Origin: Alistipes senegalensis
GTDB taxonomy: Bacteria; Bacillota; Clostridia; Oscillospirales; Ruminococcaceae
Length of the DNA stretch: 64,000 nucleotides
Direction: 5' to 3'
Assembly (NCBI GenBank): GCA_023665275.1
Contig: JAMPEF010000001.1
Span: 40,924-104,923, forward strand
How positions within the stretch are numbered: the stretch's first letter is position 1; each line of letters begins with the position of its first letter. The position numbers were made by a program, and so were the translations under genes. The notes under the pieces are model-generated. The model made no database searches, was not told the DNA's origin, and saw only the letters and a list, made by a program, of their open reading frames with translations. Of the stretch, positions 9,037 to 38,525 are shown piece after piece.

Positions 9037-9049
9037 TATAATTTCTGTG

Positions 9050-9300: not shown

Positions 9301-9354
9301 TTAAAATTTCCAGTAATATTATAAAATCTCCGTGAAATAATATTATCAAGCAAA

Positions 9355-9374
9355 TTGTTCCACGTGGAACATTA
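9355..9374. promoter_or_regulatory. Solitary parS-like palindrome immediately upstream of the spoVAD RBS
   Basis: ATTGTTCCACGTGGAACATT at 9355-9374. The spoVAD GGGAGG RBS starts 3 nt later. Confidence 0.55.
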
Positions 9375-12252: not shown

Positions 12253-12324
12253 GGCCCGTTGGTCAAGCGGTTAAGACATCGCCCTTTCACGGCGGAATCA
12301 TGGGTTCGATTCCCGTACGGGTCA
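12253..12324 (+). tRNA. tRNA-Glu (anticodon TTC)
   Basis: GGCCCGTTGGTCAAGCGGTTAAGACATCGCCCTTTCACGGCGG...GGGTTCGATTCCCGTACGGGTCA. Anticodon loop CTTTCAC. Typical tRNA-Glu sequence. ORF-track ORFs 12183..12371 and the 5' part of 12259..12840 are artefacts over these tRNAs. Confidence 0.85.
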
Positions 12325-12332
12325 CTTCAAAA

Positions 12333-12368
12333 ATCCACAAACTTAATGGTTTGTGGATTTTATTTTTA
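12333..12368 (+). terminator. Rho-independent terminator after the tRNA pair
   Basis: Perfect 10-bp stem atccacaaac/gtttgtggat with a 6-nt loop, followed by TTTTATTTTTAT. Confidence 0.7.
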
Positions 12369-12390
12369 TAAAATTTATAGAGGTAAAACA

Positions 12391-12840
12391 ATGGGACATG
12401 GTTATTGTTTTGATTGCAAAAAATGTCACTATGAATACGATGTATGTGTGGGTTCTTGTATGTTATTTTCTTATACATACAAGCAGATTGTAAATGAAAT
12501 AAAAAACGGTGTACATGGAAATAACTGGAAATATGTTTTTTCAAGTCGAAATGATATGGTTGTAAATGCTACAAAATATCTGTATATCTGCCAATGTGGT
12601 AACTGGTCAGTCGAACCTTCCCTTTCACTGTATGCCCCCAAAAATTCTAATAAACTCACTAAAACATATGTCATGGAATATGATTTAAAATCTGATTATT
12701 ATTGTATCATAAATTATATTCATATATGCAAAAAATGTGGTGCGGAAATGTATAAAACAGATATTACACATAAAACACTGCTCCCCTGCCCCAAATGTAA
12801 CAATATAAATCAGACATCAGGCATTATCAACTGGGATTAG
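12391..12840 (+). CDS. Cysteine-rich hypothetical protein with multiple CxxC pairs (putative zinc-ribbon protein)
   Basis: 149 aa from MGHGYCFDCKKCHYEY. Further pairs CQCGNW, CKKCGAE, CPKCNN. RBS AGAGGT 7 nt upstream. No family recognised. Confidence 0.55.
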   Translation: MGHGYCFDCKKCHYEYDVCVGSCMLFSYTYKQIVNEIKNGVHGNNWKYVFSSRNDMVVNATKYLYICQCGNWSVEPSLSLYAPKNSNKLTKTYVMEYDLKSDYYCIINYIHICKKCGAEMYKTDITHKTLLPCPKCNNINQTSGIINWD

Positions 12841-12904
12841 AATATTGACTTTAATTAAAGCAACTGTTATAACAAATTATAAAATAGTAATAAGGAGTTT
12901 TATA

Positions 12905-13939
12905 ATGAATATGCTTGACAAATACAAAGGTTGTCTTATCGGAGGTGCCGTCGGAGACGCACTCGGATATATTGTGGAATTTTTTCCTGAAAAGAAAATT
13001 TTCGGTCATTATGGTGAAAATGGTATAATAGAATACGAACTCAGAAATAACAAGGCAATTATATCAGATGATACTCAAATGACGCTTTTTACTGCAAACG
13101 GTCTTTTACTTGGTGCAAAAGACGGGTCATACATTCACTCAATATACGATTGTTATAAAGAATGGTTTGTAACTCAAAACTGTGAGTACAAAATAAAATT
13201 AAAATACCGTTCATGGCTTGTGGACATTCCGGAATTATGGGAACGACGTGCGCCAGGCTTTACGTGTATTAGTGCTATTTCTTCTGGTAAAATGGGTTCT
13301 GTAAGAAATCCCATAAACGACAGTAAAGGTTGTGGCGGTGTAATGCGTGTTGCACCTATTGGACTTTTCTTTAAGGATATAAGCAAAATATCACAAACTG
13401 ATATGATTGCAGCGGAAGCCTCTGCCATTACTCACGGTCACGAACTCGGCTATATACCATCTGCATGTTTCGTACATATTATAAACCTTATTTCACATAG
13501 TGATATTCCACTTAAAGATGCAGTTTCTGAAAGCATTTCCCATACAAAAAAACTTTTTAAAAATTGCAAACATATAGATTATTTCTGTCAACTTATGAAT
13601 AAAGCCTTGAAACTTTCCAGACAAAATATCAATGACCTTGACGCAATTCATGAACTTGGTGAAGGCTGGGTTGCAGAAGAAACTCTTTCTATAGCAGTTT
13701 ATTGTGCCTTGAAGTATGAAAATAACTTTGAAAAAGCTATTATTACATCTGTAAACCACAACGGCGACAGCGATTCTACTGGTGCAGTAACTGGAAATAT
13801 ACTCGGTTCTTATCTCGGAATGAATGCTATTCCTGAAAAATTCCTTGAAAATCTTGAAATTAAAGATGTTATTTCTGAAATTGCCTGTGACCTTTATAAT
13901 TATACACCCGAAAATATAAACCCTAAATATCTAAAATAA
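12905..13939 (+). CDS. ADP-ribosylglycohydrolase family protein (DraG/ARH-like)
   Basis: MNMLDKYKGCLIGGAVGDALGYIVEF and DDTQMTLFTANGLL are ARH-family N-terminal signatures. C-terminal Asp-rich NHNGDSDSTGAVTGNILG (metal site). TAAGGAG RBS. Confidence 0.8.
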   Translation: MNMLDKYKGCLIGGAVGDALGYIVEFFPEKKIFGHYGENGIIEYELRNNKAIISDDTQMTLFTANGLLLGAKDGSYIHSIYDCYKEWFVTQNCEYKIKLKYRSWLVDIPELWERRAPGFTCISAISSGKMGSVRNPINDSKGCGGVMRVAPIGLFFKDISKISQTDMIAAEASAITHGHELGYIPSACFVHIINLISHSDIPLKDAVSESISHTKKLFKNCKHIDYFCQLMNKALKLSRQNINDLDAIHELGEGWVAEETLSIAVYCALKYENNFEKAIITSVNHNGDSDSTGAVTGNILGSYLGMNAIPEKFLENLEIKDVISEIACDLYNYTPENINPKYLK

Positions 13940-13940
13940 A

Positions 13941-14288
13941 AATGTTCCACGTGGAACATTTTCAGGTTTTATACAAGCTGATTGTTCCACGTGGAACATT
14001 TTTCAAGTTTCGTACAAGCTGATTGTTCTACGTGGAACATTTTTCAAGTTTCGTACAGACCGATTGTTCCATGTGGAACATTTTTCAAGTTTCATACAGA
14101 CTGATTGTTCCACGTGGAACATTTTTCAAGTTTCGTACAGACCAATTGTTCCATGTGGAACATTTTTCAAGTTTCATACAGACTGATTGTTCCACGTGGA
14201 ACATTTTTCAAGTTTCGTACAGACTGATTGTTCCGCGTGGAACATTTTTCAAGTTTCGTACAAACCGATTGTTCCATGTGGAACATTT
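13941..14288. repeat. Tandem array 2: 9 copies of parS-like palindrome, period 41 bp
   Basis: 16-mers start at 13943, 13983, 14024, 14065, 14106, 14147, 14188, 14229, 14270. Four are perfect. The others have single central changes (TACGTG, CATGTG x3, CGCGTG). Spacer TTTTCAAGTTTCRTACAGACYGAT. ORF 14023..14367 is an artefact. Confidence 0.9.
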
Positions 14289-14366
14289 TATTTTTTCATT
14301 ACGTAATGAAAGGAATATTATTTTATTTTCCGGCATATTATTCTATGATATTTTGGAGGTGATGTA

Positions 14367-16415
14367 ATGGAAAACAATAAATATATTGTAGCACTTGCCG
14401 GAAATCCCAATGTTGGAAAGTCAACGGTATTTAATGCCCTAACAGGCATGAATCAGCATACTGGAAACTGGGCAGGGAAAACTGTTTCAAGTGCAGAAGG
14501 ATTCTTTGAATACAAAGATATGCATTTCACACTTGCGGATATTCCAGGAATGTATTCACTCCGCAACAGTTCCGCAGAAGAAACTACTGCAAGCGATTTC
14601 ATTTATTTTACGGAAACTGATGCTATTATTGTAGTATGTGATGCAACTTGTCTTGAAAGAAATCTAAATCTTGTCATACAAATAACAGAAGTATCTCCAA
14701 AAACTATAGTATGTGTAAATCTTCTTGACGAGGCGAGCGCAAAAGGCATAACCATAGACCTTGATTTATTAAGTCAGATTTTAGGCGTACACGTCGTGGG
14801 CATCACAGCACGTGACGGAAAAGGTCTTGACAAACTTCTTGAATGTCTTTACAACTGCATAAAAGAAGACGCATTACCAGTAAAGCTTCAACTTCCCCTG
14901 AATGACGACATAAAAAACGCCATAACAGATATTTCCCGTATAATAGAAAAAGATATACATAAACTTCCGCCGGAAACTGTCGCAATGCATATACTTGAAA
15001 ACAATACATCTTTCCTTGAAAAAACAGAAAAATATGAAAATATCCATTTTTCAGAGTTTCCGGAAATAGATAAAATAAAATATTCCATGCAAGAAAAAGG
15101 TTTCACGACAGAAAAAATATCTGACGAAATTATTTCCGCAACTATTAAAAAGGCTGCTGAAATTGTTGCAACAACTGTAAGTTATAAAAAATCCTCACCA
15201 TACGTCCGTGACCGTAAACTTGACAGAATATTTCTAAGCAGACGTGCAGGAATACCTGTAATGATTATTCTTTTCGGACTTATATTATGGATTACAATTG
15301 TCGGCGCTAACTATCCGTCGGATTTACTGGGAAAACTTCTTTTCGGACTTGGTGACATAATGTCTAAGGGACTTGCAAAAATAAACGCACCTGAATGGCT
15401 TGATGGTGTACTGATTCAGGGTATATATAAAGTTCTTGCATGGGTAGTATCCGTAATGCTGCCACCTATGGCGATATTTTTTCCTATGTTCACACTTCTG
15501 GAAGATTTAGGGTATCTGCCGAGAATAGCTTTCAATCTTGACCATTGTTTCCGATGTGCAAACGCTTGTGGAAAACAAGCCATAACTATGGCTATGGGAT
15601 TTGGTTGTAATGCTTGCGGAGTTACAGGGTGTCGGATTATAGATTCTCCACGTGAAAGACTTATTGCTATAATAACAAATAGTTTTGTTCCATGTAACGG
15701 ACGTTTTCCGACTATTATTATGATAATTACTATGTTTATTGTAATGTCCGGAAGTTTTCTGTCAACATTGATTCTGCTTGCTGTAATAATAGCCGGTGTT
15801 CTAATGACTCTTGTAATGTCGAAACTTCTTTCATGTACAATACTTAAAGGTGTGGCATCGTCGTTCACACTGGAGCTTCCACCATATCGTAAACCACAAT
15901 TCACAAAAGTACTTATACGTTCAATTTTCGACCGGACTATATTTGTACTTGCACGTGCATGTACTGCCGCTGCTCCGTGCGGACTTCTTATATGGATTTT
16001 TGCTAATGTCCATGTCGGAAATGGTACAATTCTATCTGTTGTTGCAGATTTCCTTAATCCTTTTGCCTGCCTTATGGGACTTGACGGTGTAATATTACTT
16101 GCCTTTATACTGGGATTTCCGGCAAATGAAATAGTATTCCCCATCATACTTATGACATATCTTGCACAGGGAAGCCTTGTCGAAATGTCAGATACTGTAC
16201 AGATTCATGAACTTCTAAAAGAACACGGCTGGAATATCACTACTGCCGTATGTATGATGATTTTCACACTTTTTCACTTTCCGTGTGCGACTACCTGTAT
16301 GACCATAAAAAAAGAAACAGGCAGTCTCAGATGGACTGCCCTAAGTTTTTTACTTCCTACCATTACAGGAATAGTTCTTTGTATGATTGTAAATGCTGTA
16401 AGTATGTTATTTTAG
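14367..16415 (+). CDS. feoB: Ferrous iron transport protein B
   Basis: 682 aa. N-terminal G-domain ALAGNPNVGKSTVFNALTG, followed by polytopic membrane domains with the GCNACG gate motif. No feoA ORF upstream; the repeat array sits there instead. Confidence 0.9.
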   Translation: MENNKYIVALAGNPNVGKSTVFNALTGMNQHTGNWAGKTVSSAEGFFEYKDMHFTLADIPGMYSLRNSSAEETTASDFIYFTETDAIIVVCDATCLERNLNLVIQITEVSPKTIVCVNLLDEASAKGITIDLDLLSQILGVHVVGITARDGKGLDKLLECLYNCIKEDALPVKLQLPLNDDIKNAITDISRIIEKDIHKLPPETVAMHILENNTSFLEKTEKYENIHFSEFPEIDKIKYSMQEKGFTTEKISDEIISATIKKAAEIVATTVSYKKSSPYVRDRKLDRIFLSRRAGIPVMIILFGLILWITIVGANYPSDLLGKLLFGLGDIMSKGLAKINAPEWLDGVLIQGIYKVLAWVVSVMLPPMAIFFPMFTLLEDLGYLPRIAFNLDHCFRCANACGKQAITMAMGFGCNACGVTGCRIIDSPRERLIAIITNSFVPCNGRFPTIIMIITMFIVMSGSFLSTLILLAVIIAGVLMTLVMSKLLSCTILKGVASSFTLELPPYRKPQFTKVLIRSIFDRTIFVLARACTAAAPCGLLIWIFANVHVGNGTILSVVADFLNPFACLMGLDGVILLAFILGFPANEIVFPIILMTYLAQGSLVEMSDTVQIHELLKEHGWNITTAVCMMIFTLFHFPCATTCMTIKKETGSLRWTALSFLLPTITGIVLCMIVNAVSMLF

Positions 16416-16996
16416 ACATCTCCGCCGTATGAACGTACTATAGCTGCAAGTCCGCCCTGATAGCCTGAACCTATTGCATTGAATTTCCATTCACCATTTC
16501 TGTTGTAGAACTCTGCAACAACAAGGGCTGTTTCTATGGAAAACTCTTCTTCAAGGTCAAATCTCAATATAGTATCTCCGGAAGTATCATCTTCATTCTT
16601 CATTTTCGCAACACGTATATATGCATTTGAAACCTGTCCGAAATTCTGGCGACGTTCTTCTGCTTCATGGATTGTTACACAGATAGCTATTTTCTTGATT
16701 TCCGGAGGAAGTTTAGCAAAGTCAATAATAATAACTTCGTCGTCACCCTCTCCGTCACCTGTGAGGTTGTCTCCGGTATGGATTACTGCTCCGTCACGTC
16801 CGCTGAGATTGTTATAAAAAACAAAATCTTCATCACGAAGAAGTTTCCCGTTTTCGCCGAGAAGAAATGCAGAAGCATCAAGGTCAAAATCATAACCGCC
16901 GTCATAACGGTTAGTATCCCAGCCAAGCCCTACAAGTGCAAGACGCATTGTCTCACCGAATGCATATCGCTGACCTTTCTGTAAATTGATTGCCAT
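16412..16996 (-). CDS. TerD-family stress/tellurium-resistance protein
   Basis: MAINLQKGQR start and GDNLTGDGEGDDEVI Ca-binding motif typical of TerD/TerE/YceD. 194 aa. AGGAGG RBS. Confidence 0.85.
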   Translation of the reverse strand: MAINLQKGQRYAFGETMRLALVGLGWDTNRYDGGYDFDLDASAFLLGENGKLLRDEDFVFYNNLSGRDGAVIHTGDNLTGDGEGDDEVIIIDFAKLPPEIKKIAICVTIHEAEERRQNFGQVSNAYIRVAKMKNEDDTSGDTILRFDLEEEFSIETALVVAEFYNRNGEWKFNAIGSGYQGGLAAIVRSYGGDV

Positions 16997-17063
16997 AAAT
17001 AAAAAACCTCCTTTTAAAAGAACGGAACAGCTATTTTTTTATATAAACTGTTCCGCATAAAAA

Positions 17064-17678
17064 TTATCTGTAAAGTGAAATAAGTGCATCTAAACGGCTT
17101 GCCTCTCTGACAGCCTGTCCTATAGCATTGAATTTCCATTCATTGCCCTTGCGGTAAATCTCACCGACAACAAGTCCGGTCATGTTGCTGTAGTTCTCAG
17201 AAAGATTAAACCGGCATATTTCCTGATTTTTTTCCATGTCAACAAGTCTTATAAACGCGTTTTCAATCATACCGAAATGCTGACCTCTTTTATTAGCATC
17301 ATATATGTTTACTGTAAACACAACCTTGTGTATATCCGATGGAAGACGGCTTATGTCAACCATAATCTGTTCATCATCGCCCTCGCCTGCTCCTGTGAGA
17401 TTATCACCCTGATGTATGATTGCACCGCTTGAATGTCTAAGATTCCCGAAATATACAACACTTGTTTTTGTGTCGGTGCTGATAATTTTTCCGTTTGCTC
17501 CGCAAAGTATAGCAGAAGCGTCACAGTCAATATCCTGCTGTGGTACTGAAAACAGGGTCTTGAAAAATCCACCGGACTGTTTCACCTCGTCCCAGCCAAG
17601 ACCGACCATAATTCTCTTAAGTCCGCCACCCTCTTTGCTGAGGTTGATTTTCTGACCTTTCTGAAGATTAATACTCAT
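17064..17678 (-). CDS. TerD-family protein (paralog)
   Basis: MSINLQKGQKINL and GDNLTGAGEGDDEQI. 204 aa. AAGGAGG RBS. 23 bp downstream of the ATPase stop. Confidence 0.85.
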   Translation of the reverse strand: MSINLQKGQKINLSKEGGGLKRIMVGLGWDEVKQSGGFFKTLFSVPQQDIDCDASAILCGANGKIISTDTKTSVVYFGNLRHSSGAIIHQGDNLTGAGEGDDEQIMVDISRLPSDIHKVVFTVNIYDANKRGQHFGMIENAFIRLVDMEKNQEICRFNLSENYSNMTGLVVGEIYRKGNEWKFNAIGQAVREASRLDALISLYR

Positions 17679-17701
17679 TTCTGATTTCCTCCTTCATTAT
17701 A

Positions 17702-20293
17702 TTATTTTTTAGTAGCTACCTTGCGTATCATGTCAATCGGAATAACCATGAATGCAAGTACAATACAGATTAACCATGTCTTTATATTAAGTGGTTCAAC
17801 GCTAAGGAACTCACCACCAAACGTTACAAATACAAACTGTATCAGTAGCAATGCACCCATTACAATAAGGAAATTTTTATTTCTGCCTAAATGTTCAAAT
17901 ACGTTGATTTTTTCTGTACGTGCATTGAAACCATTAAATGTGATAGCCATCATGAACGTTGCAAAAAGTGCTGAACACAGATACGTATCGTCTACATCAC
18001 CAAAAATGTCACGCAGTGCCGGAACAAAACGTATACAGAGACAAAGTGCTGTAATATAAAGTCCGCTGATTACAAACTGCATCATCATTGACTTGCTGAC
18101 AATACTTTCATTACGTGGAATAGGTCTGTCTTTCATGTACTCCTTAAGCGCCGGCTCACTACCAAATGCAATAGCAGCGAGCGTATCCATAGCGAGATTT
18201 ACGAGAAGTAACTGAATAACTGTCATCATTGTAGGCTCACCAAGAAGCGGACCTATGAAACATGTCAGAACTGCCGCAACATTTACTGTAAGCTGGAATA
18301 TAAGGAACTTTCTTATACCTTTAAACATTGTACGTCCGTAAAGAATGGCTTTCGCAATTGAAGAGAAGTTATCATCAAGAATAGTTATATCGCCTGCCTC
18401 TTTAGCAACTTCCGTACCACTACCCATAGCAAATCCGACATCTGCTTTTTTAAGTGCCGGAGAATCGTTTACACCGTCGCCTGTCATACCTACTACGTAA
18501 TCAAGTTCCTGTGCGCAACGTACAAGACGACTCTTGTCAGTCGGCAACGCACGGGCAACAACTCTTAAATTAGGAATAACTTTTTTAAGTTCTTCGTCTG
18601 TCTTTTCATTAAGTTCAGCAGAAGTAAGTGCAACATCTTCCGGATTTCTGATAAGTCCTGCTTCCTTTGCAATAGCAACAGCAGTTTCCTTACGGTCGCC
18701 GGTAACCATTACAACCTGAATGCCGGCGTTCTGAACTTCCTTGATAGCATCAACCGCCTCTTTACGTACATTGTCTCTAATACAAAGAATACATACAAGC
18801 GTAAGGTCACCTTCATCACTGACACCATCACGCTTTGCAACGGCAAGAAGTCGCATTGAACGTCCTGCCTGTTCATCGATATATTTTGTTATTTCCTTGT
18901 GATTATTGAGAACGTTTATATTTCCGTTAGCGTCAACATACTGTGTACATCTCACAAGAAGTTTTTCAGGTGCACCCTTTACGTAAGTATAACTTGCACC
19001 ATTTCTTGAAATAGTAACACTGGACATCTTTTGTGTAGAATTGAATGGATTGAAGTTTGTAGCCTCGTCCTTGTTGATTTTGTTTTCTGCCTTGGCATCA
19101 ATCAGGAAATTCATTAAAGCACGGTCAGTACTATTACCACCGATAACGTTTCCATCACTTGCGGCGGCACTGTTATTAACGCCAGCACCTACAACAATAT
19201 CATCTATGAACTTTTCCGATGTATCAGAAAGTTTTGAAAATTTCTTTACATCACCTGTGATAAATTCAACTACTGAAAGTTTACCCTCTGTGATAGTACC
19301 TGTCTTGTCGCTATAAAGAAGGCTGAGACTTCCAGCAGTTTCAAGACCGTTTATCTTTCTTACAAGTACGTTGTCTTTTGACATCTTAAGGCTCTGGAAT
19401 GAAAGCAGTATAGATGTAAGCATCGGAAGACCTTCCGGAACTGCACATACTATGATAGTAACCGCTACTGTGATAGCATTCATTATAACCTTAATCCAGC
19501 CTATTGCAGAATCAGGTGCACCGTCGCCGATAACAGTCTGTAATATAGTACAGATGATAATTGCAACAGCTCCGATATATCCAAACATTGAAATCTGTTT
19601 TGCAAGTTTGGAAAGTTTAACCTGTAAAGGAGTTTCACGTGTATCTTCCTGAACTTCAAGGGCAAGCTCACCGAAAAGCGTCTTATCACCAACAACTTTT
19701 ACTTCCATATAAGCCTCACCACCGCATACGACTGTACCACGATAAGCATAATGTTTATTGAGCAGGTCTTTTATGTCGTATTTTTCGCCGGAATTTACAG
19801 GATGTTTTTCTGCCTCTTCGGTTTCGCCGTTTAGTGCCGCCTGGTCTACTTTTACTTCACCCTCGACAATTTCGCCATCTGCTGCAATTTTGTCGCCTGC
19901 CTGAAGATAGATAATATCCCCTACAACAACTTCGCTGACATGGATTTCACAAAGCTTGCCATCACGGATAACTTTAGCCATTTCCTTGGATTCTTCTTCT
20001 TCTTTGAGTGCAGAGGCTTTATTTTCCTGTTTATGTTCGCTGATTGAGGAAACACCATTTGCAATTAGTATCGCAATAAGAACACCAACCGGCTCGAACC
20101 ACTCCGCCTGACCCATAAAACATAATACAACCTGTACTACAAGTGCAACGATAAGAATCATAATCATAGGGTCTTTAAAACCTTCAAGAATTTTTTTCCA
20201 TAATGGGTCGGGGGGAATCTGAGTAAGATTATTGTCGCCATGTTTTTTACGACTTTCTTCAACCTCTTTTTTTGACAGTCCATTAAGATTCAT
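17702..20293 (-). CDS. Calcium-translocating P-type ATPase (second copy in window)
   Basis: DKTGTITEG, TGDGVNDSPALKKADVG, PEGLP. Start taken at MNLNG (ATG 20293, AAGGAG RBS) rather than the ORF-track start at 20428. Confidence 0.85.
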   Translation of the reverse strand: MNLNGLSKKEVEESRKKHGDNNLTQIPPDPLWKKILEGFKDPMIMILIVALVVQVVLCFMGQAEWFEPVGVLIAILIANGVSSISEHKQENKASALKEEEESKEMAKVIRDGKLCEIHVSEVVVGDIIYLQAGDKIAADGEIVEGEVKVDQAALNGETEEAEKHPVNSGEKYDIKDLLNKHYAYRGTVVCGGEAYMEVKVVGDKTLFGELALEVQEDTRETPLQVKLSKLAKQISMFGYIGAVAIIICTILQTVIGDGAPDSAIGWIKVIMNAITVAVTIIVCAVPEGLPMLTSILLSFQSLKMSKDNVLVRKINGLETAGSLSLLYSDKTGTITEGKLSVVEFITGDVKKFSKLSDTSEKFIDDIVVGAGVNNSAAASDGNVIGGNSTDRALMNFLIDAKAENKINKDEATNFNPFNSTQKMSSVTISRNGASYTYVKGAPEKLLVRCTQYVDANGNINVLNNHKEITKYIDEQAGRSMRLLAVAKRDGVSDEGDLTLVCILCIRDNVRKEAVDAIKEVQNAGIQVVMVTGDRKETAVAIAKEAGLIRNPEDVALTSAELNEKTDEELKKVIPNLRVVARALPTDKSRLVRCAQELDYVVGMTGDGVNDSPALKKADVGFAMGSGTEVAKEAGDITILDDNFSSIAKAILYGRTMFKGIRKFLIFQLTVNVAAVLTCFIGPLLGEPTMMTVIQLLLVNLAMDTLAAIAFGSEPALKEYMKDRPIPRNESIVSKSMMMQFVISGLYITALCLCIRFVPALRDIFGDVDDTYLCSALFATFMMAITFNGFNARTEKINVFEHLGRNKNFLIVMGALLLIQFVFVTFGGEFLSVEPLNIKTWLICIVLAFMVIPIDMIRKVATKK

Positions 20294-20557
20294 AGACATA
20301 TCTCCTTCTTTTGAATATATTTTTTCAGGTGCGCAAAAGCACACACTTATAGTTAATATTATACATTCCGGAGGGGCATTTGTCAATATCCGGAAACTGA
20401 AAATGTCGTAATTTAGCGAACCAAACAAATTATTATTATTCTATTTGTGAAAATTAACGTCACCTGAATTTTCATGACATACATATAATTGACTGCACTA
20501 AAAACAATATTCATATAATGCCATATCATGCCACAAAAAAGGATTATGATGTTACAG

Positions 20558-20577
20558 AATGTTCCACATGGAACATT
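20558..20577. promoter_or_regulatory. Degenerate parS-like site (AATGTTCCACATGGAACATT) in the shared upstream region of the ATPase operon and fprA
   Basis: One central transition (CACGTG to CACATG) breaks the palindrome. Confidence 0.4.
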
Positions 20578-20742
20578 TTCATTGTGGTAATTTTTTGTGG
20601 AAAATCAACATAAAAAATCTTATGGAAATATTCAGCGTTATTTATAATTCAGACATAAAAAATTTCCTGAAAAAGTCTTTTTTTCCGTGACGGAATATGT
20701 TATAATAGAAGTATTCCAAATATGAAAAGAGGTATTTTAATT

Positions 20743-21897
20743 ATGCATATCACAGATGATATTTTCAATGTCGGCGTCAACGCCCATAATGTTGACTTAT
20801 TCGAGGGACAGTATATCGTCCCTAACGGCATGGCTTATCACTCGTATGTAATCATGGACGAAAAAATAGCTGTACTTGATACGGTTGATGCGAATTTCTC
20901 TGACGAATGGCTCGCCAATATAAGAGAAGTTCTTGACGGACGTAATCCGGACTATCTGATAGTACAACACATGGAGTGTGACCACTCTGCAAACATAATG
21001 AACTTTATGAAAGAATTTCCGGAGACAACTATTGTCGGAAATGCAAAGACTTTCACAATGCTTGCAAACTTCTTTGAAGATACAGCAGAACTAAAAAAAC
21101 TTGTCGTAAAGGAAAATGATACACTTTCACTCGGAAAACATATACTTAATTTTGTATTCGCACCTATGGTACACTGGCCAGAAGTAATGTTCACTTACGA
21201 CAGCACCGAAAAAGTTCTTTTTTCAGCCGACGCTTTCGGAAAATTCGGGGCATCGGACGTTGAGGAAGACTGGGCTTGTGAGGCAAGACGTTATTATTTC
21301 GGAATTGTCGGAAAATACGGCGCACAAGTACAAACAGTTCTGAAAAAAGCCTCTGGACTGGATATACATATAATATGTCCGCTTCATGGAGTTGTGCTGA
21401 CAGAAAATCTCTCCTACTATCTCGGACTTTATAATACATGGTCTTCATACGAAGTTGAGAGTGACGGCGTAATGATTGCTTATACTTCCGTTTACGGAAA
21501 TACCAAGAAAGCCTGTGAAATTCTTGCGGACAAACTCACGGAAAAAGGCTGTAAGAAAGTTGTTCTGTGTGACCTTGCCCGTGAGGATATGGCAGAAGCT
21601 GTAGAAGACGCTTTCAGATACGGAAAAATTGTCCTTGCCTCTCCGACTTATAACGCTGATGTCTTCCCTTTCATGAAACACTTCATTCTTGCACTGACTG
21701 AAAGAAATTTCCAGAACCGCACAATAGGTATTATTGAAAACGGTTCGTGGGCTGTTACCGCCGGAAAAGTAATGCATGATATGCTGGCAAAATCAAAAAA
21801 CATCACATGGCTTGAAAATACTGTAAGCATAAAATCTGCTGTAAAATCTGAAAATCTGATACAGATTAAAAATATGTCTGAAGAATTAATGAAATAA
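20743..21897 (+). CDS. Flavodiiron protein (FprA-like A-type flavoprotein; metallo-beta-lactamase fold plus flavodoxin domain)
   Basis: HMECDHS diiron-ligand motif in the N-terminal lactamase-like domain. C-terminal flavodoxin-like domain (SVYGNTKKACE). About 385 aa. Confidence 0.8.
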   Translation: MHITDDIFNVGVNAHNVDLFEGQYIVPNGMAYHSYVIMDEKIAVLDTVDANFSDEWLANIREVLDGRNPDYLIVQHMECDHSANIMNFMKEFPETTIVGNAKTFTMLANFFEDTAELKKLVVKENDTLSLGKHILNFVFAPMVHWPEVMFTYDSTEKVLFSADAFGKFGASDVEEDWACEARRYYFGIVGKYGAQVQTVLKKASGLDIHIICPLHGVVLTENLSYYLGLYNTWSSYEVESDGVMIAYTSVYGNTKKACEILADKLTEKGCKKVVLCDLAREDMAEAVEDAFRYGKIVLASPTYNADVFPFMKHFILALTERNFQNRTIGIIENGSWAVTAGKVMHDMLAKSKNITWLENTVSIKSAVKSENLIQIKNMSEELMK

Positions 21898-21910
21898 TTT
21901 TTTGATGCTG

Positions 21911-21930
21911 AATGTTCCACGTGGAACATT
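21911..21930. promoter_or_regulatory. Solitary perfect 20-bp palindrome AATGTTCCACGTGGAACATT (parS-like) 13 bp after the fprA stop
   Basis: Exact 20-mer that is its own reverse complement. Confidence 0.55.
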
Positions 21931-21988
21931 TTCGGGAATGCATTAAAAACCGTCTGAAAAGTCATAATATCAGAAAGGAGGGCTTTTT

Positions 21989-22192
21989 ATGAAAATAACA
22001 TTAAATCCCGATAAAGAAGTAGTCGAAAAAATAAAAGAGGGTCTGAAACTGAAAGACGGTTACTGTCCGTGCCGCATTCCCCGTACACCAGAAAATAAAT
22101 GCATGTGCAAAGAGTTCAGGGAACAGATTGCAGACCCGAATTTTGAGGGATTCTGTCACTGCATGCTTTACTACAAATCAAAGGAGGAATAA
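21989..22192 (+). CDS. Ferredoxin-thioredoxin-reductase catalytic-subunit-like protein (FTR-like)
   Basis: 67 aa with CPC(R)...CMC...CHC motifs characteristic of the FTR catalytic subunit fold. AAGGAGGG RBS. Directly precedes trxA. Confidence 0.6.
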   Translation: MKITLNPDKEVVEKIKEGLKLKDGYCPCRIPRTPENKCMCKEFREQIADPNFEGFCHCMLYYKSKEE

Positions 22193-22197
22193 TTTTA

Positions 22198-22505
22198 TGG
22201 AAATCACTATCACTAAGGAAAATTTCGATGATGAAGTACGAAATTATAAGGGAACTGTCCTGCTGGATTTCTGGGCTGACTGGTGCGGACCTTGTATGAT
22301 GCTTTCACCGGCTATCTCGAAAATCGCCACTGAACTTGCCGGAAAAGTTAAAGTCGGAAAAGTTAATGTTGATGAACAGCCGGAACTTTCCGCAGCTTTC
22401 AGAGTGGAAAGTATTCCGTTACTTGTTGTCGTGAAAGACGGCGTTATACAAAAGCAATCTGTCGGAGTTATTCCAGAAAATCAGATACTCGAAATGCTTA
22501 AATAA
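22198..22505 (+). CDS. trxA: Thioredoxin
   Basis: WCGPC active site. 102 aa. AAGGAGG RBS. The ORF-track start at 22128 is over-extended. Confidence 0.9.
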
Positions 22506-22510
22506 AAAAA

Positions 22511-22548
22511 AGTCACGAAGGAAAAATTTTCTTCGTGACTTTTTTGTT
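22511..22548 (+). terminator. Rho-independent terminator after trxA
   Basis: agtcacgaaggaaaa/ttttccttcgtgact hairpin followed by TTTTTGTTT. Confidence 0.7.
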
Positions 22549-22593
22549 TACCAAAAACGAAATCCCACATAATATATAGTGAGGTGATTATTT

Positions 22594-22704
22594 ATGCTGA
22601 ATTTTCTTTTAGGTTCATTTTTCGGTGGTACTGTAGGAATGTTTGCAATGTGTCTGTGTACCGCCGCAAAGAATGCAGATGATTTTTTTGACTCCGAAAA
22701 ATAA
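22594..22704 (+). CDS. Possible small hydrophobic protein (36 aa; below the ORF-track cutoff)
   Basis: GAGGTGA RBS 7 nt upstream of the ATG. MLNFLLGSFFGGTVGMFAMCLCTAAKNADDFFDSEK. Sits between the trxA terminator and the convergent serS stop. Confidence 0.25.
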   Translation: MLNFLLGSFFGGTVGMFAMCLCTAAKNADDFFDSEK

Positions 22705-23997
22705 TTATTTCTTAACCGGAACTGCTATAACGTCCTTACGCATATAGTGACGGAGTGCCTCCGGAATTCTTATACTGCCATCTTCGTTGATGTTGTTTTC
22801 AAGGAATGCTATTAACATTCTCGGCGGTGCTACAACGGTATTATTGAGGGTATGTGCAAAATATTTGTTTCCTTCATCTGTCTTTACTCTTATTCCAAGA
22901 CGGCGAGCCTGTGCGTCACCAAGATTTGAACAGCTTCCGACTTCAAAATATTTCTGCTGTCTTGGTGACCACGCTTCAACGTCGATACTCTTGACTTTAA
23001 GGTCTGCCAAATCACCCGAACAACATTCAAGAGTACGGACAGGAATGTCAAGTGTACGGAAAAATTCAACTGTATAACTGTAGAGTTTATGAAACCAGTT
23101 CATACTTTCCTCCGGTTTGCAGACAACAACCATTTCCTGTTTCTCAAACTGGTGTATTCTGTAAACTCCCCTTTCCTCAATTCCACGTGAGCCGACTTCC
23201 TTACGGAAGCACGGTGAATAGCTTGTGAGAGCTTTCGGAAGTTCTTCTTCGGGAATGATATTATCAATAAATTTGCCAATCATGGAGTGTTCACTTGTAC
23301 CGATTAAATAAAGGTCTTCGCCTTCAATCTTGTACATCATGTTGCCCATTTCCTCAAAGCTCATTACACCAGTAACAACATCACTTCTAATCATAAAAGG
23401 CGGAATATAATATGTAAAACCTTTGTCAATCATGAAATCCCTTGCATAAGAAAGTATACACGACTGTAACTGTGCAATATCTCCGCAGAGATAATAAAAA
23501 CCACTGCCACTTGTCTTTCTTGAACTGTTAAGGTCAATACCGTTTAATTTTTCCATGATGTCGACATGGTGCGGAACTTCAAAATCAGGTACTGCCGGTT
23601 CGCCGAATTTTTCAACTTCAACGTTTTCACTGTCGTCCTTGCCAATCGGGACACTTTCGTCAATGATATTCGGGATAACAAGCATAATTTCATGAATATC
23701 AGCTTCCAACTTAACTTCAAGTTCTTCCATCTCTGTAAGCTTTTCACCGATTTCAATAACTTCCGCCTTTACTTTTTCAGCTTCGTCTTTCTGACCCTTA
23801 GCCATTAAACCGCCAATTTGCTTGCTCTTTACCTTACGCTGATTTCTCAGACTGTCACATTCAACTTTCGTTGCCCTGTACTGCCTGTCCAGTTCAACAA
23901 CCTTGTCTACAAGTTCAAGTTTTTCGTCCTGAAATTTCTTTTTAATGTTTTCCTTTACAATTTCCGGATTTGTACGGATTAATTTAATATCAATCAT
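22705..23997 (-). CDS. serS: Seryl-tRNA synthetase
   Basis: 430 aa. N-terminal coiled coil MIDIKLIRTNPE. Class II motifs (FRKE, GSRG). Confidence 0.95.
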   Translation of the reverse strand: MIDIKLIRTNPEIVKENIKKKFQDEKLELVDKVVELDRQYRATKVECDSLRNQRKVKSKQIGGLMAKGQKDEAEKVKAEVIEIGEKLTEMEELEVKLEADIHEIMLVIPNIIDESVPIGKDDSENVEVEKFGEPAVPDFEVPHHVDIMEKLNGIDLNSSRKTSGSGFYYLCGDIAQLQSCILSYARDFMIDKGFTYYIPPFMIRSDVVTGVMSFEEMGNMMYKIEGEDLYLIGTSEHSMIGKFIDNIIPEEELPKALTSYSPCFRKEVGSRGIEERGVYRIHQFEKQEMVVVCKPEESMNWFHKLYSYTVEFFRTLDIPVRTLECCSGDLADLKVKSIDVEAWSPRQQKYFEVGSCSNLGDAQARRLGIRVKTDEGNKYFAHTLNNTVVAPPRMLIAFLENNINEDGSIRIPEALRHYMRKDVIAVPVKK

Positions 23998-24012: not shown

Positions 24013-24864
24013 TTATTCATAGTCCTTTGCGAGTTTTTCAGCAATTGTTTTCAAATCGTCCTTATCATAAAATTCAAGGACGAGCGAACCTTTTTCTCCG
24101 CTATGTTTCACCTTGACTTTACGTCCGAGACGCATATTTAATGCAATTTCCATTTCAGCAAAATAATTGTCGGCCATATCCCGTTCATGTTCTTTCTGAA
24201 ATGCATTGTCTCTTTTATGTATTTCATTTTCAAGCTGACGTACAGTCATTTTACCGTCGGAAGCCCTTTCAGCAAGTTCAGTAAGAAATTTTACATCTTC
24301 AATCACTGCAAGCAGTGCTTTTGCATGACCAATCGACAGACTGCCTGTTTCAAGCATATATAGCACCGTATCCGGAAGTGAAAGTATTCTTACAGCATTT
24401 GCAATTGCAGACCTTGAACGCCCTACCATTTTTGCGATTTGTTCCTGTGTCATTCCGTATTTTTCAATAAGGTCACAGTAACCGTTAGCTTCTTCAACCG
24501 GATTAAGATTCTCTCTTTGAAGATTTTCTATAACTGCAATCTGCATAGCCTGTATATCGGAAAGTTCACGTATATTAACCGGTACTTCATCAAGACCGAG
24601 CATTCTTGCGGCTCTCCAGCGTCTTTCGCCGGCGACAATCTGATAACCACCAATCGACAAAGGTCTGACAAGTATCGGCTGTAACATACCATGTTCACGG
24701 ATAGACGCCGCAAGAGACGTTATTGCCTCTTCACTGAAAACTTTTCGTGGTTGGTCACGATTAGGTTCTATTTCAGAAGTCCTTAATGTTTTTTTTACTT
24801 GTATTTCGCTTGTATTGTCACTGAAAAGACTATCAAGCCCAGCACCAAGCCCACCTATAGCCAT
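24013..24864 (-). CDS. spo0J: Chromosome partitioning protein ParB/Spo0J
   Basis: 283 aa. GERRWRAA ParB box. HTH MTQEQIAKMVGRSRSAIAN. Genomic context soj-spo0J. Confidence 0.9.
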   Translation of the reverse strand: MAIGGLGAGLDSLFSDNTSEIQVKKTLRTSEIEPNRDQPRKVFSEEAITSLAASIREHGMLQPILVRPLSIGGYQIVAGERRWRAARMLGLDEVPVNIRELSDIQAMQIAVIENLQRENLNPVEEANGYCDLIEKYGMTQEQIAKMVGRSRSAIANAVRILSLPDTVLYMLETGSLSIGHAKALLAVIEDVKFLTELAERASDGKMTVRQLENEIHKRDNAFQKEHERDMADNYFAEMEIALNMRLGRKVKVKHSGEKGSLVLEFYDKDDLKTIAEKLAKDYE

Positions 24865-24884: not shown

Positions 24885-25694
24885 TTATTTCTTGTTGAAT
24901 GAAAAAATTCCCCTGAGTTTTTTCTTCGGGAGTTCGAGAGGCTCACCGAGAAGTTCATGTCCAAGAAGTTCATAAGCCTCCGCACCCTTTGAAGACTTGT
25001 CATAATACATAACAGGCTTGCCATGACTTGGTGCTTCTGAAAGACGTACATTTCTTGGTATCTTTGTTTTGAAAATTTTATCAGGGAAATACTTTTCCAC
25101 TTCTGCAACTACATCATTGGCGACATTAAGTCTTCCATCAAACATAGTGAAAACAATTCCCTCAATATTAAGTACGGGATTATAATTCGTCTTAACAATC
25201 TTTATCGTATTGACAAGCTGTGAAAGTCCTTCCAGTGCGAAAAACTCTGCAAGCATCGGGACTATCACCGTATCACATGCAACGAGTGCATTTATTGTGA
25301 TAAGACCAAGTGCCGGTGGACAGTCAATAAATATATAATCATAGTCTTCACGACAAGTAAGCGTCTGCATTTTTAGACGTTTCATTCTGTTCTCAAAGTT
25401 TATAAGTTCTATTTCGCAACCGGCAAGAGATTCTGTAGCCGGAACTATTGATACATTGCTGAAATCAGTTCCTATAACAGCATCCTGAATCCTTATTTTA
25501 CCAGTCAAGACATCATATGTCGAGGCACTGGCGGACTTTTTCTTAACCCCAAAAGCAGTAGTAGTATTGCCTTGCGGGTCTGAATCAATACAAAGAACCT
25601 TAAATCCCCTTGAACCAAGATAAGCAGCAAGATTTACGGCTGTAGTAGATTTTCCGACGCCGCCTTTTTGATTTGCCACTGCAATTATTTTGCC
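24885..25694 (-). CDS. soj: Chromosome partitioning ATPase ParA/Soj
   Basis: MGKIIAVANQKGGVGKSTT deviant Walker A. Start set at MGKII (25694). The ORF-track start at 25715 is over-extended. Confidence 0.9.
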   Translation of the reverse strand, partial: GKIIAVANQKGGVGKSTTAVNLAAYLGSRGFKVLCIDSDPQGNTTTAFGVKKKSASASTYDVLTGKIRIQDAVIGTDFSNVSIVPATESLAGCEIELINFENRMKRLKMQTLTCREDYDYIFIDCPPALGLITINALVACDTVIVPMLAEFFALEGLSQLVNTIKIVKTNYNPVLNIEGIVFTMFDGRLNVANDVVAEVEKYFPDKIFKTKIPRNVRLSEAPSHGKPVMYYDKSSKGAEAYELLGHELLGEPLELPKKKLRGIFSFNKK

Positions 25695-25788
25695 CATGGT
25701 ATTCATTCCTTTCATTTTTTATATTTAATATTATAGCACCTTTTAAACGCTTTGTAAATAGTAGTTGTACAATTTTTATACTTATCCG

Positions 25789-26270
25789 AATGTTCCACGT
25801 GGAACATTTTCATGGCACAGACTTTTTATTCTTAATTGTTCCACGTGGAACATTTTTCATGCACAGACTTTTTATTCTTAATTGTTCCACGTGGAACATT
25901 TTCATGGCACAGACTTTTTATTCTTAATTGTTCCACGTGGAACATTTTCATGGCACAGACTTTTTATTCTTAATTGTTCCACGTGGAACATTTTTCATGA
26001 CACAGACTTTTTATTTCTGATTGTTCCACGTGGAACATTTTTCATGCACAGACTTTTTATTCTTAATTGTTCCACGTGGAACATTTTCATGGCACAGACT
26101 TTTTATTCTTAATTGTTCCACGTGGAACATTTTCATGGCACAGACTTTTTATTCTTAATTGTTCCACGTGGAACATTTTTCATGACACAGACTTTTTATT
26201 TCTGATTGTTCCACGTGGAACATTTTCATGACACAGACTTTTTATTCTTAATTGTTCCACGTGGAACATT
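25789..26270. repeat. Tandem array 3: 11 perfect copies of parS-like palindrome, period about 46 bp, filling the soj-noc intergenic region
   Basis: 16-mers start at 25791, 25837, 25883, 25928, 25974, 26021, 26067, 26113, 26159, 26206, 26252. All are exact TGTTCCACGTGGAACA. Spacer TTTTCATGRCACAGACTTTTTATTYYTRAT. ORFs 25673..25927 and 25882..26112 are artefacts. Confidence 0.9.
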
Positions 26271-26311
26271 AAAAAAGTCCCACATGAAAAGACTTCATGC
26301 GGAACTTTTTA

Positions 26312-27127
26312 TCATTTTGCTTTCTGAACAGGGATTCTAATTCGATATTCTATGTAGTCATGATGCTGAATTTTCTGTGAATCTGCCGGAATACCAGCCA
26401 ACTGCATCGTTTCCACGGTCTTATTTATGGTATTAATAAATATTTTCACATTCTGAAAAACTTTTGAACGTTTTTTATAGTTTGTCTTTTCACGTTGAGA
26501 GCCGATAAAATCCTCAATAAGTTTTTCAGTACGTTCAACATTAAGATTATCCTTGACGATTTTTTCAAGGATAACAAGTCTGTCTGGTGGACTTGCCAGT
26601 TTAAGTAAAGCTCTTGCATGACGTTCAGTAAGTCCAAACTTTCCTATTAGTTCACGTTCTTCAGGAGTAAGACGCAGAAGACGTAATTTATTGGCTATAG
26701 TACTTTGTGCCTTACCGAGTTTAGCGGCTGCATCTTCCTGTGTCAAGCCATAATATGTAATAAGTCTTTCGATAGCCGCCGCCTCGTCAAAGAAAGATAA
26801 GTCCTGACATTTAATATTTTCGACAAGCGCAATAATAGCAGAATCCCTGTCATTGACTTCATGTATGATACACGGAACTGATTTCAGCCCACATATTTCA
26901 GCAGCCTTTAGATATTTTTCACCTTTAATAAGTTCAAAAACCTCACCGCATCTTTTCACGATCAACGGCTGTAAAACACCGTTTTTCATGACTGATTCTG
27001 CAAGTACTGAAATTTCCGTATCCTGAAAATCCGGATTCGGTTTATTCTGGTCAAGAACAATCATATTTATATCAATCTCAACCACTTTACTGATGAGTTT
27101 TTCTTTTGTAAAATTTAAAAGTGCCAT
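26312..27127 (-). CDS. noc: Nucleoid occlusion protein / second ParB-family paralog
   Basis: 271 aa ParB-like. HTH LTQEDAAAKLGKAQSTIANKLRLL. Position between rsmG and soj matches noc synteny in Firmicutes. Confidence 0.7.
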   Translation of the reverse strand: MALLNFTKEKLISKVVEIDINMIVLDQNKPNPDFQDTEISVLAESVMKNGVLQPLIVKRCGEVFELIKGEKYLKAAEICGLKSVPCIIHEVNDRDSAIIALVENIKCQDLSFFDEAAAIERLITYYGLTQEDAAAKLGKAQSTIANKLRLLRLTPEERELIGKFGLTERHARALLKLASPPDRLVILEKIVKDNLNVERTEKLIEDFIGSQREKTNYKKRSKVFQNVKIFINTINKTVETMQLAGIPADSQKIQHHDYIEYRIRIPVQKAK

Positions 27128-29864: not shown

Positions 29865-29884
29865 AATGTTCCACGTGGAACATT
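29865..29884. promoter_or_regulatory. Solitary perfect 20-bp parS-like palindrome in the 33-bp mnmE-mnmG spacer (overlaps the mnmE stop codon)
   Basis: AATGTTCCACGTGGAACATT exact. Confidence 0.55.
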
Positions 29885-34926: not shown

Positions 34927-35072
34927 ATTTACAGGAAAGAATTGCTTTTTTTATTGTTTCCTACCGGAACTGAATACAGGTCAGCCGGAGCGGAAAAATA
35001 TACATGAAAACTGTATTTTTTTACGTCTTACCCGGAACAGCTCCGGAAATATCATTAATACGGAGGGAAAAT

Positions 35073-36431: not shown

Positions 36432-38525
36432 TTCGAAATATGAACACTGAAATCCTGCAAGGAAAATTTTTCACCGGAAAACAATGCATTTATTTTAATA
36501 ATATAGCAAATAATATAATATCTAATATAATATTTAGTGCTTAAACTTTTATTTAAGATATATCTTAATCTTATTTTTTAAATAATATCTTTTATAAGGT
36601 TTGTGCAAATTTACCAAATGGCATTTTTGGCAAAATCGAAAATTTCTGTTAACCATATGCAACATTTTGTAAATAAATTGTAAATAATTATAATTTTTAT
36701 TTAAGTTACAAAAAATTAATACGAATTTTTTTTGTGTACTTTTACTAAAAATTTTTGATGTTTTTATAAAAATAACCTGTTTTTACAAGCTTGTGTAAAT
36801 CTGAATAACGATTTATGCAAAAGAAAATACATAATTTTTATAGATTTATTTTTAACTATTAAACAGATATATTTTATATATTTAATATTTTTTAGGCTTA
36901 AAACAGAAATAAATCAGCAGTAATAAGTTTTAATTAATTATTTTTTGTTTATATTTATGAATTGGATATAATTTTTAATATTTAAAAAACTTGGGTATAC
37001 AATTTGACGGAAAAAATCAGCATTGGCTTCCGGAAAAAATGAAAGTTTGTTCTTAAATTTCTTTAAGAAGTTCCCATCTGGAGTGAAAAAAGTGTGAATT
37101 TGGCTTTTTTTAAAAAATATTGCTATTTTCAATAAAAAATATAACATAACTGTATTTTCCGACAGAAACCGAGAATTTCAAGCAGATTTTAAAATTCTCA
37201 GTAAATATAATAACTCTCAAATTTCCTTTAAAACTGGCATTTATTCAAGATAAATTCATATAAATATACAACAGTCTATTTATTAATAAATTATTAATTG
37301 CCGGCTTTACTCTACAGAAAAACCACAAAATTTTCTGAAAGTTCAAAAAACTTAAATAAAAAGTTTTAATTTATTTTTTTGAAATCCAGTTTTTGAAGTA
37401 AAAAAATTACAATTTTATGGAAATCCTAAAAAATTTACCTTGATTTTTTAGCTGTTTACATGGAAAAAATAATTTATTAAAACTTTAATTTAAGTAAATA
37501 ATTTTCCAATTGTTAACCATAGTTAACATATGAACAAATTATTAAGGGTTCAGATGAACCGATTTGGAATTGTTATTTATTTTAATTTTTATTTTTTATG
37601 ACTTTATTATTAAATTTTTATTTATTTTTAGTTAATTTATAAAAAATATAAATAAATTATCCCATTAAAAATCACTAAATATAGCTACAAAAAATAAGTA
37701 AATAAATATAACTTTCTTTTTATGATGATTTAGTGTTTAAATTGTGAAATTATCAATTATGAACTAAATATGTATTTTTTATGAACAATTGCCGTAACGA
37801 AAAATAGCCAAAAAATCGATATCAACTACCTCTTAAATGCCGTTTTTGTGTAATAAATCACGAAAAAACGTTACATGGCAATATGCACAAACAACTTTTG
37901 TGAAAATTAAATTTTAGGCTTAATATAGCGGTTTTTTAAGATACAATATTTTTAAAGAGTACTTTTGTTCTCTGAAAAACGTTGTTTTATAACGATTTTC
38001 GGCATAAACGAATATTCTTTAAAATTTTTAATATTTAAAAAATACCGTTCATAATTTAGACATAATCAGAATATACGTTCTGTTTTGGTCGGAAAAAGAT
38101 AAAAAATTCATGTTATCCCTCGCCTGTTTTTGCCTAAATATAGGTAAAATCAGGTAGACATTGAACGAAATAACAATATACCAAAAGTTTTCAACAAAAA
38201 GAACGTAAGTTCTCAAAATTTTGTTAGATTAATGTTTGCTTTTTGATTTTCACAGTTCCAACACAAAACATGTTTCACTATCAACAGTTTATCAACATTA
38301 ATTTTGTTGAATTATCTATACAAAATATAGCCGTAAAACAAAACTTTCAACTTTTTATTCTCACTTAATTAAGAGTACTAATTTATTATTTATTTATTAT
38401 TTACGCGCCGCTAAAAAAATTCTGAAAAACAAAAAATTTGCAATTCTTGATTTTCAGAATCAAAAAATCAAAAAAAAATTATTATCAATTGTTACCAAAT
38501 TATGAATACAGGAGGAATTTTCAAA
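36432..38525. other. About 2.1-kb ORF-free, extremely AT-rich dnaA-dnaN spacer (putative extended oriC / DNA-unwinding region)
   Basis: No ORF of 60 aa or more apart from an RBS-less 69-aa antisense ORF. Only degenerate DnaA-box-like 9-mers found by eye (TTATCAACA about 38290, TTATCCCTC about 38113). GTTAAC inverted repeat at 37511-37528. Confidence 0.4.

Follow-up and report, generated by a model that had tools for sequence, protein, structure and literature searches.

Within the window, as we call the whole 64-kb stretch of DNA analyzed here, a dense array of short palindromes (array 3) sits among genes that follow one another on the minus strand in the order jag, mnmE, mnmG, rsmG, a noc-like gene, array 3, soj, spo0J, and serS. 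The dnaA gene starts at 35004, approximately 8.7–9 kb away from the array, and the cumulative GC skew is lowest at 36–38 kb, where GC content also drops to 25%. The classical gene order, the presence of dnaA, the skew minimum, and the low GC content therefore mark this part of the window as the origin region, and array 3 has the origin-proximal location expected of a chromosomal parS locus. Canonical DnaA boxes (TTATCCACA-type) were not enriched anywhere in the window, so we placed oriC from its context: it is probably the 2-kb gap between dnaA and a putative dnaN (36432–38501), which has ~25% GC and lies at the skew minimum. AT-rich tandem repeats are found inside this gap at 36540–36591 and 37568–37643.

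The exact ParB and Noc-like proteins of this locus appear under three NCBI accessions, labeled as a Prevotella sp. MAG and as Alistipes senegalensis. Every homologue that we retrieved bears the name Ruminococcus sp. or Oscillospiraceae. Because spoVAD, the Firmicute origin synteny, and all of the homologues indicate Ruminococcus, the deposits probably carry incorrect taxon labels or stem from contaminated bins. We regard the organism as a Ruminococcus-type Clostridium.

The noc-like gene has its stop at 26312 and soj starts at 25715, which leaves a gap of 596 bp (25716–26311). Array 3 takes up 478 bp of this gap, from 25791 to 26268, and consists of 11 exact copies of the 16-mer TGTTCCACGTGGAACA, starting at 25791, 25837, 25883, 25929, 25975, 26022, 26068, 26114, 26160, 26207, and 26253. 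A preliminary description of this DNA had reported 11 mutation-free palindromes between a noc-type paralog and soj–spo0J; we found all 11 of 11 to be exact, and the gene identities agree with that placement. The array that it described is real, with a start at 25791 instead of 25789. Its nearly identical 46-bp units were also recovered as repeats, with the corrections that neighboring sites are either 46 or 47 bp apart and that the spacers come in four variants, ordered A B A A C B A A C D. It had further stated that the array fills the entire soj–noc gap, which does not hold since the array covers only 478 of the 596 bp; the rest contains the noc terminator (26272–26310) and the promoter and leader of soj.

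Tandem Repeats Finder (TRF) assigned array 3 a period of 46 with 10.4 copies and 94% matches, plus two higher-order periods (139 and 185). The spacers have a mean pairwise identity of 0.93. Two adjoining four-unit blocks, which together span 25837–26206, are identical at 185/185 positions (25837–26021 and 26022–26206), and an exact repeat of 207 nt occurs within the array at a shift of 185. There were no differences in the cores (0/160), compared to 19/310 in the spacers, though these cells are not independent since variants were inherited via block duplication. In the other two arrays of the window, core conservation was not significantly above that of the spacers. The intact cores of array 3 suggest that selection or conversion has acted in their favor.

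We considered other classes of repeat for array 3 and rejected them. A CRISPR array does not fit, given spacers that share 93% identity, a repeat of just 16 bp, and par genes and rsmG as neighbors. Mobile-element and coding readings were likewise rejected; the ORFs at 25673–25927 and 25882–26112 are translated repeats. The same is true of two ORFs that span the other arrays (9014–9349 and 14023–14367): all four have lengths of 76–114 aa, translate to repeats such as MFHVEHFHGTDFLFLIVPRGTF..., and are not genes. Separately, the noc terminator (region 26269–26315) has an arm (AAAAAGTCCCACATGAAAA, plus strand) that resembles the array 3 spacer (AAAAAGTCTGTGCCATGAAAA, minus strand). The founding unit of array 3 may have been a duplicated parS site plus part of the noc terminator.

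The 16-mer is the fully palindromic form of the universal chromosomal parS site, TGTTNCACGTGNAACA, for which the B. subtilis consensus is TGTTCCACGTGAAACA (PMC7614844). The preliminary description had treated the palindrome as parS, and it matches the consensus exactly. Allowing up to one mismatch, the window contains 32 parS sites (23 exact and nine with one mismatch), compared to 0.01 expected from 100 dinucleotide-preserving shuffles of the window. All of them fall on one side of dnaA, the left, where they occupy 25 kb (4.7–29.9 kb). Three regular tandem arrays, each located in an intergenic gap, account for 27/32 sites, and the remaining five are single. Array 1 (9055–9371) has seven sites at 38-bp spacing (9055–9298), three of which carry one transition, plus one site at 9356; a Ca-ATPase gene and spoVAD border the gap that it fills. 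Array 2 (13943–14285) has nine sites spaced 40 or 41 bp apart, five of which carry one transition; its gap, likewise filled, separates an ADP-ribosylglycohydrolase gene from feoB, and the array is identical in a second assembly (L121, below). Three perfect single sites lie in the mnmE–mnmG gap (29867–29882), in an intergenic region (21913–21928), and within the hydF coding sequence (4721–4736), and a site with one mismatch (CACATG) lies in a divergent intergenic region (20560–20575). A scan of the window found no parS site within spo0J.

At all 32 sites, the 16-mer is preceded by A[A/T] and followed by TT, which extends to TTTT(T) in the arrays. The effective palindrome may therefore be approximately 20 bp long. 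In the 38-, 41-, and 46-bp arrays, successive sites are rotated by 223, 326, and 137 degrees, respectively. With no helical phase shared among the three arrays, no common phasing appears to be required, which fits sites that act independently. Each of the nine imperfect sites (9055, 9207, 9245, 14024, 14065, 14147, 14229, 14270, and 20560) is one transition away from the consensus, and five of these nine are changed at the central CpG (CACGTG to CATGTG or CACATG). Among the variants in arrays 1 and 2 are CATGTG and TCTACG. The CpG changes would fit the deamination of methylated cytosine.

The two genes that follow array 3 encode a chromosomal partition system. The product of soj (parA; 24885–25715, minus strand) is a Walker-type ParA ATPase with an AAA_31 domain and a KGGVGKS Walker box; public assemblies call its start at 25697 (270 aa), as opposed to the 276-aa ORF from 25715. 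The product of spo0J (parB; 24013–24864, minus strand) is a canonical chromosomal ParB with ParB_N, HTH_ParB, and ParB_C domains and the motif GERRWRAA. Its best PDB matches are Spo0J/ParB proteins. It scored 185.6 bits against TIGR00180, a generic chromosomal-type model with a cutoff of 58.45, and plasmid partition models scored far below their cutoffs. The locus thus encodes a cognate ParB for chromosomal parS, with a parS-type helix–turn–helix, a GERR box, and a ParA partner.

On the other side of array 3, the Noc-like ParB paralog (26312–27127, minus strand) has its best alignments with Noc of Geobacillus and B. subtilis (E ~1e-40) and a Noc-like C-terminus. R and G at the specificity positions are invariant in ParBs that bind parS, and four such positions switch a ParB from parS to the Noc-binding site, NBS (PMC7383237). 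The ParB recognition region, RSRSAIANAVRILSL...IGHAK, carries R and G at its specificity positions. The Noc-like helix, GKAQSTIANKLRLLRL...TERHARAL, equals that of B. subtilis and Geobacillus Noc save for one conservative change, and its four specificity residues are Q, K, R, and R. We therefore predict that array 3 is bound by ParB alone and that the Noc-like protein does not bind parS; the earlier suggestion that either paralog might bind is unlikely on these residues. We also rejected array 3 as a set of Noc-binding sites, given that its sequence is parS and differs from the NBS at the discriminating bases. Noc-binding sites (ATTTCCCGGGAAAT) showed no enrichment in the window, where one match with two mismatches was found compared to 0.44 expected.

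The Noc-like protein has an unusual feature of its own: GEKYLKA stands in place of the GERRxRA box, at a position where 106/120 homologues have GERRLRA. The form GEK(Y/R)LKA is confined to the window and its few nearest relatives, and the N-terminus, MA(F/L)LNFTKEK, is conserved. The arginine box GERR binds CTP in both ParB and Noc. Since the Noc-like protein is without GERRLRA, CTP switching of Noc may be weakened in this lineage.

We next turn to the DNA that flanks the array. The only strong promoter-like site on the soj side of the gap is a putative soj–spo0J promoter (25730–25758, minus strand), TTTACA-17-TATAAT with a TG-extended -10, which is sigma-70-like and matches at 11/12 positions. 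Its -35 hexamer is 32 bp away from the nearest parS site, outside of the array, and a promoter scan found no promoter-like site inside the array. The preliminary description had proposed that the array covers this promoter; as the promoter (25758–25730) lies outside and its block is almost unchanged in all readable relatives, whether they have 0, 3, 7, or 10 parS sites, that claim is unsupported. The array could nevertheless serve mainly as an operator, in line with the autoregulation which that description had suggested, through which ParB represses or tunes soj–spo0J. The short distance of 32 bp to the -35 hexamer is consistent with such a role, as is the presence of arrays directly upstream of parA in many lineages, and ParB clamps sliding out of array 3 would cross the promoter, so that some autoregulation is possible. 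Several observations speak against it being the main role. No site in array 3 overlaps the transcription start or the -35 and -10 hexamers, the promoter is conserved at 0 to 10 parS sites, even in a lineage in which serS now follows it, and two arrays of the same build (1 and 2) lie far from the par genes. On balance, we consider an operator that acts mainly on this promoter to be unlikely.

On the noc side, an intrinsic terminator of the noc-like gene (26272–26310, minus strand) consists of a 17-bp stem (dG -21.3 kcal/mol) and the T-run after it, and it is conserved in relatives. The flanks of parS also lend each unit of the array a weak terminator-like look on the plus strand. The units might then be RNA hairpins that work as terminators or insulators: a pattern scan flagged nine units as terminator-like on the plus strand (a run of TTTT(T) comes after the palindrome), and plus-strand genes precede arrays 1 and 2 in that orientation. 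A unit hairpin, however, reaches only -7.1 kcal/mol compared to -21.3 kcal/mol for the noc terminator, the units of array 3 are antisense to noc and soj, and no Rfam family came near its gathering score, with sub-threshold eukaryotic miRNA matches being noise. The same low standing applies to an array bound by the Noc-like paralog, against which its NBS-type residues and the discriminating bases of parS argue. We regard hairpins and Noc binding, taken together, as highly improbable.

A comparison of the same locus in relatives revealed a wide range of copy numbers. The closest assembly (L121/L133; GCA_023666785.1) is 100% identical to the window over 11,145 nt (window positions 12271–23415) and has seven copies, lacking exactly one of the 185-bp blocks. 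The next (L153; GCA_029060965.1) is 96.0% identical over 6.8 kb and has 10 parS sites at 46 bp and, nearest the promoter, one further copy that has decayed; 4/10 of the cores are mutated. Beyond these, relatives are ordered by the identity of their Noc-like protein: at 91%, a contig that ends 12 bp past the first parS (L134); at 85%, seven perfect sites spaced 47 or 48 bp apart (L135); at 84%, a deletion of soj–spo0J with 0 parS in 6.8 kb (L124/L125); at 79%, three sites at 44 bp with the spacer in the opposite orientation (L136/L137); at 78%, parAB kept with 0 parS in 6.8 kb (L126–L131); and at 72%, three sites at 43 bp (L132). The single site in the mnmE–mnmG gap is kept in L121, L132, L136, and L153 and is absent in L126–L131 and L124/L125. 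Searches of metagenomes returned no matches to an array-specific 41-mer and no confirmed relatives of the Noc-like protein.

These comparisons bear on whether the 11 copies are real. Mis-assembly of a far shorter array would be in line with the 100% identity of the 185-bp blocks, with the seven copies in a near-identical assembly, and with the contig of L134 stopping 12 bp past the first parS. Yet that other assembly still has seven copies, the more distant L135 also has seven, and the 96%-identical L153 has 10+1 copies with the same period in diverged, unambiguous units. Collapse of the 207-nt repeat in a short-contig draft also explains seven versus 11 copies better than expansion does. The existence of array 3 as an artefact is excluded at the level of these assemblies, with which either seven or 11 copies remain compatible, and a true array far shorter than the assembled one is very unlikely. 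The seven copies in L121 reflect either a short-read collapse at the 207-nt exact repeat or a very recent duplication. The 10+1 copies in L153 indicate that approximately ten is a real state of this lineage.

The spacers revealed how the units change together. All of the spacers in L153 end in (G/A)ACCTGAAAA, whereas all of those in the window end in CATGAAAA(A). Spacers of the window array share an identity of 0.93 and those of the L153 array 0.91, compared to 0.79 between the two arrays, while their flanks are 96% identical. Such lineage-specific changes, fixed in all units, are the signature of concerted evolution. Recent amplification or homogenization had been proposed from the near identity of the units, and it is borne out by the identical 185-bp blocks, the difference of seven versus 11 copies between near-identical assemblies, and the fixed spacer changes in L153. 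Spacers of the window and L135 have an identity of 0.68, barely above the shuffled control (0.59 ± 0.06); common ancestry of the arrays is therefore clear only for L153.

The relatives also allowed us to ask whether parS sites and parAB are lost together. In L124/L125, where soj–spo0J is deleted, there are zero parS sites at up to two mismatches in 6.8 kb, including at the mnmE–mnmG position. This joint absence is consistent with parS depending on its ParB. L126–L131 are likewise without parS in the same 6.8 kb, and because they retain parAB, the absence in this interval is not specific to parAB loss. The gene order in L124/L125 (3808–4014) is noc, then the conserved soj promoter, then serS. 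Another rearrangement is found in L126 and L128–L131 (5623–5949), which have an extra 108-aa ORF after parB with matches to HTH_ParB and ParB_C, as if the 3' part of parB had been duplicated.

Tandem parS sites are not restricted to these relatives. We scanned one genome per species for three parS sites spaced 31–61 bp apart and obtained at least 120 stretches; the source genome of the window is not among the matches listed. Among the 120 matches listed, 79 have ParA or ParB in the same 8-kb block and 102 have just three copies, which places the window array at the upper end among them. Collinsella has the order rsmG, three parS at 39 bp, parA. Two Lachnospiraceae MAGs have arrays directly upstream of parA, with eight copies at 46/47 bp (L025) and seven at 47–50 bp (L113), and their spacers are unrelated to those of array 3. 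A Bacilli MAG (L040) has 10 copies at 55 bp. Tandem parS upstream of parA was also found in Rhodospirillales and others, again with unrelated spacers. Unrelated spacers across lineages indicate that the tandem parS architecture is recurrent and independent in origin. In addition, 15 IMG/VR contigs (L138–L152) carry 3–8 tandem chromosomal-type parS sites; among the stretches of these that we fetched, only that of L139 has a match to the window ParB, and in L138 and L148 both ends of the contig carry sites. The 15 contigs could be extrachromosomal elements that borrow the ParB of their host, or mis-binned chromosomal DNA.

The most serious alternative to a functional array is that of a neutral satellite, in which one parS site is functional, the extra copies arose from slippage or unequal exchange, and their multiplicity has no function. 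Copy numbers of 0, 3, 7, and 10–11 among close relatives that all keep parAB count in its favor, and the cores in arrays 1, 2, and L153 decay at approximately the rate of the spacers. A single parS is also sufficient for segregation in several model species (PMC8299390; PMC7333895), so extra copies may add nothing. On the other hand, one genome has three separate arrays, and the architecture upstream of parA has arisen independently in several phyla with unrelated spacers. The 11/11 perfect cores in array 3, surrounded by spacers that vary, also argue against neutrality, as does the loss of all parS where parAB was lost (a local observation, over 6.8 kb). Taking both sides into account, we find a neutral satellite doubtful, though it deserves the most attention of the alternatives.

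We instead favor the interpretation, at a probability of roughly 0.8, that array 3 is a tandemly amplified chromosomal centromere block which would act as a multi-site loading platform for the adjacent ParB (Spo0J). It rests on the identity of the sites as parS, the adjacent ParB and ParA, the origin-proximal position, the turnover and concerted evolution of the array, and the co-loss of parS and parAB. Close relatives with intact parAB and 0 or 3 sites at the locus count against it. In vitro, condensation force and ParB loading increase with parS number (PMC8299390), and in B. subtilis, ParB foci form at engineered arrays of 16 parS copies (PMC7614844).

The loading platform would operate as follows. 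Each 16-bp palindrome would nucleate one ParB dimer. CTP binding would then shut the ParB clamp, which would leave parS and slide onto the flanking DNA. With 11 sites 46 bp apart that could be occupied independently, the loading flux should be higher than from one. Together, arrays 1–3 and the single sites could build a large and more stable ParB complex 7–32 kb to the left of the origin, which Soj/ParA would move and to which SMC would probably be recruited. Array length would change by slippage or unequal recombination between units, with homogenization in each lineage. ParB binding at array 3, a dose effect on loading, and the parts played by SMC and ParA are inferred.

We compared this locus with known systems. 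B. subtilis has about ten dispersed single parS sites, with the strongest one inside spo0J. Its Spo0J–parS system resembles array 3 in having the same 16-bp palindrome, an origin-proximal location, a cognate soj–spo0J, and an upstream noc paralog. It differs in that 27/32 sites here are in three tandem arrays and none are in spo0J, which makes the analogy drawn in the preliminary description, to the strongest B. subtilis parS, a loose one.

In Myxococcus xanthus, 22 parS sites (consensus TGTTCCACGTGGAACG) lie within 3.1 kb beside parAB, and large ParB complexes form in vitro (PMC3899335). As in array 3, near-identical chromosomal parS sites are naturally packed close together next to parAB. 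Its mean spacing is approximately 140 bp, and it is not described as a regular satellite (PMC3899335). In contrast, the window arrays have a strict period of 38–47 bp, homogeneous spacers, block duplication, and concerted evolution between strains. The M. xanthus cluster is the nearest chromosomal precedent that we found.

The architecture itself is almost that of a plasmid locus. The F-plasmid sopC has 12 tandem 43-bp repeats, each of which contains a 16-bp inverted repeat bound by SopB. It is located on a plasmid, downstream of sopAB, and SopB belongs to a different ParB subfamily with a different site sequence. Array 3 and sopC share about a dozen direct repeats of approximately 43–46 bp, with one 16-bp palindrome in each, beside a partition operon. 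Array 3 differs from sopC by being chromosomal, by using the universal parS, and by lying upstream of parA. It thus has the repeat architecture of sopC (46/47 bp, 11 copies) with neither the plasmid location nor a SopB-type protein. By this analogy, array 3 would work like sopC, and it is not a member of the plasmid family.

Engineered arrays of the same parS site, with 16 copies in B. subtilis (PMC7614844) or as DNA substrates of 7–39 copies (PMC8299390), are synthetic, whereas array 3 is natural, origin-proximal, and evolving. On all features that sequence can address, array 3 belongs with the chromosomal ParABS centromeres. We found no description of natural, regular, concertedly evolving tandem chromosomal parS arrays in the literature, of which our coverage was incomplete.

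The finding introduces no new mechanism or protein; array 3 is an unusually amplified and fast-evolving form of a well-known system. A 2020 review of ParABS puts the upper range at 20–23 parS sites in a genome; it asks why their number varies although one is enough, and what causes them to cluster (PMC7333895). Here, a single window has 32 sites, compared to that cited upper range for whole genomes. The relatives form a graded series of copy numbers at one locus, including the joint loss of parAB and parS, which makes the question of parS dose testable. Bacterial chromosomal centromeres can evolve in concert in the manner of satellite repeats. A bolder proposal, which we hold only tentatively and think improbable, is that a satellite-like "regional centromere" exists in this clade and in unrelated phyla, turns over at the level of species, and has a copy number that selection uses as a dial for ParB loading, with extrachromosomal elements that have no ParB of their own pirating the host-type arrays. 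If this were true, the copy-number dial might serve origin capture in sporulation or the balance of ParB dosage, and the Ruminococcus series, with 0, 3, 7, and 10–11 copies and a sister lineage without parAB, would be a natural experiment on parS number.
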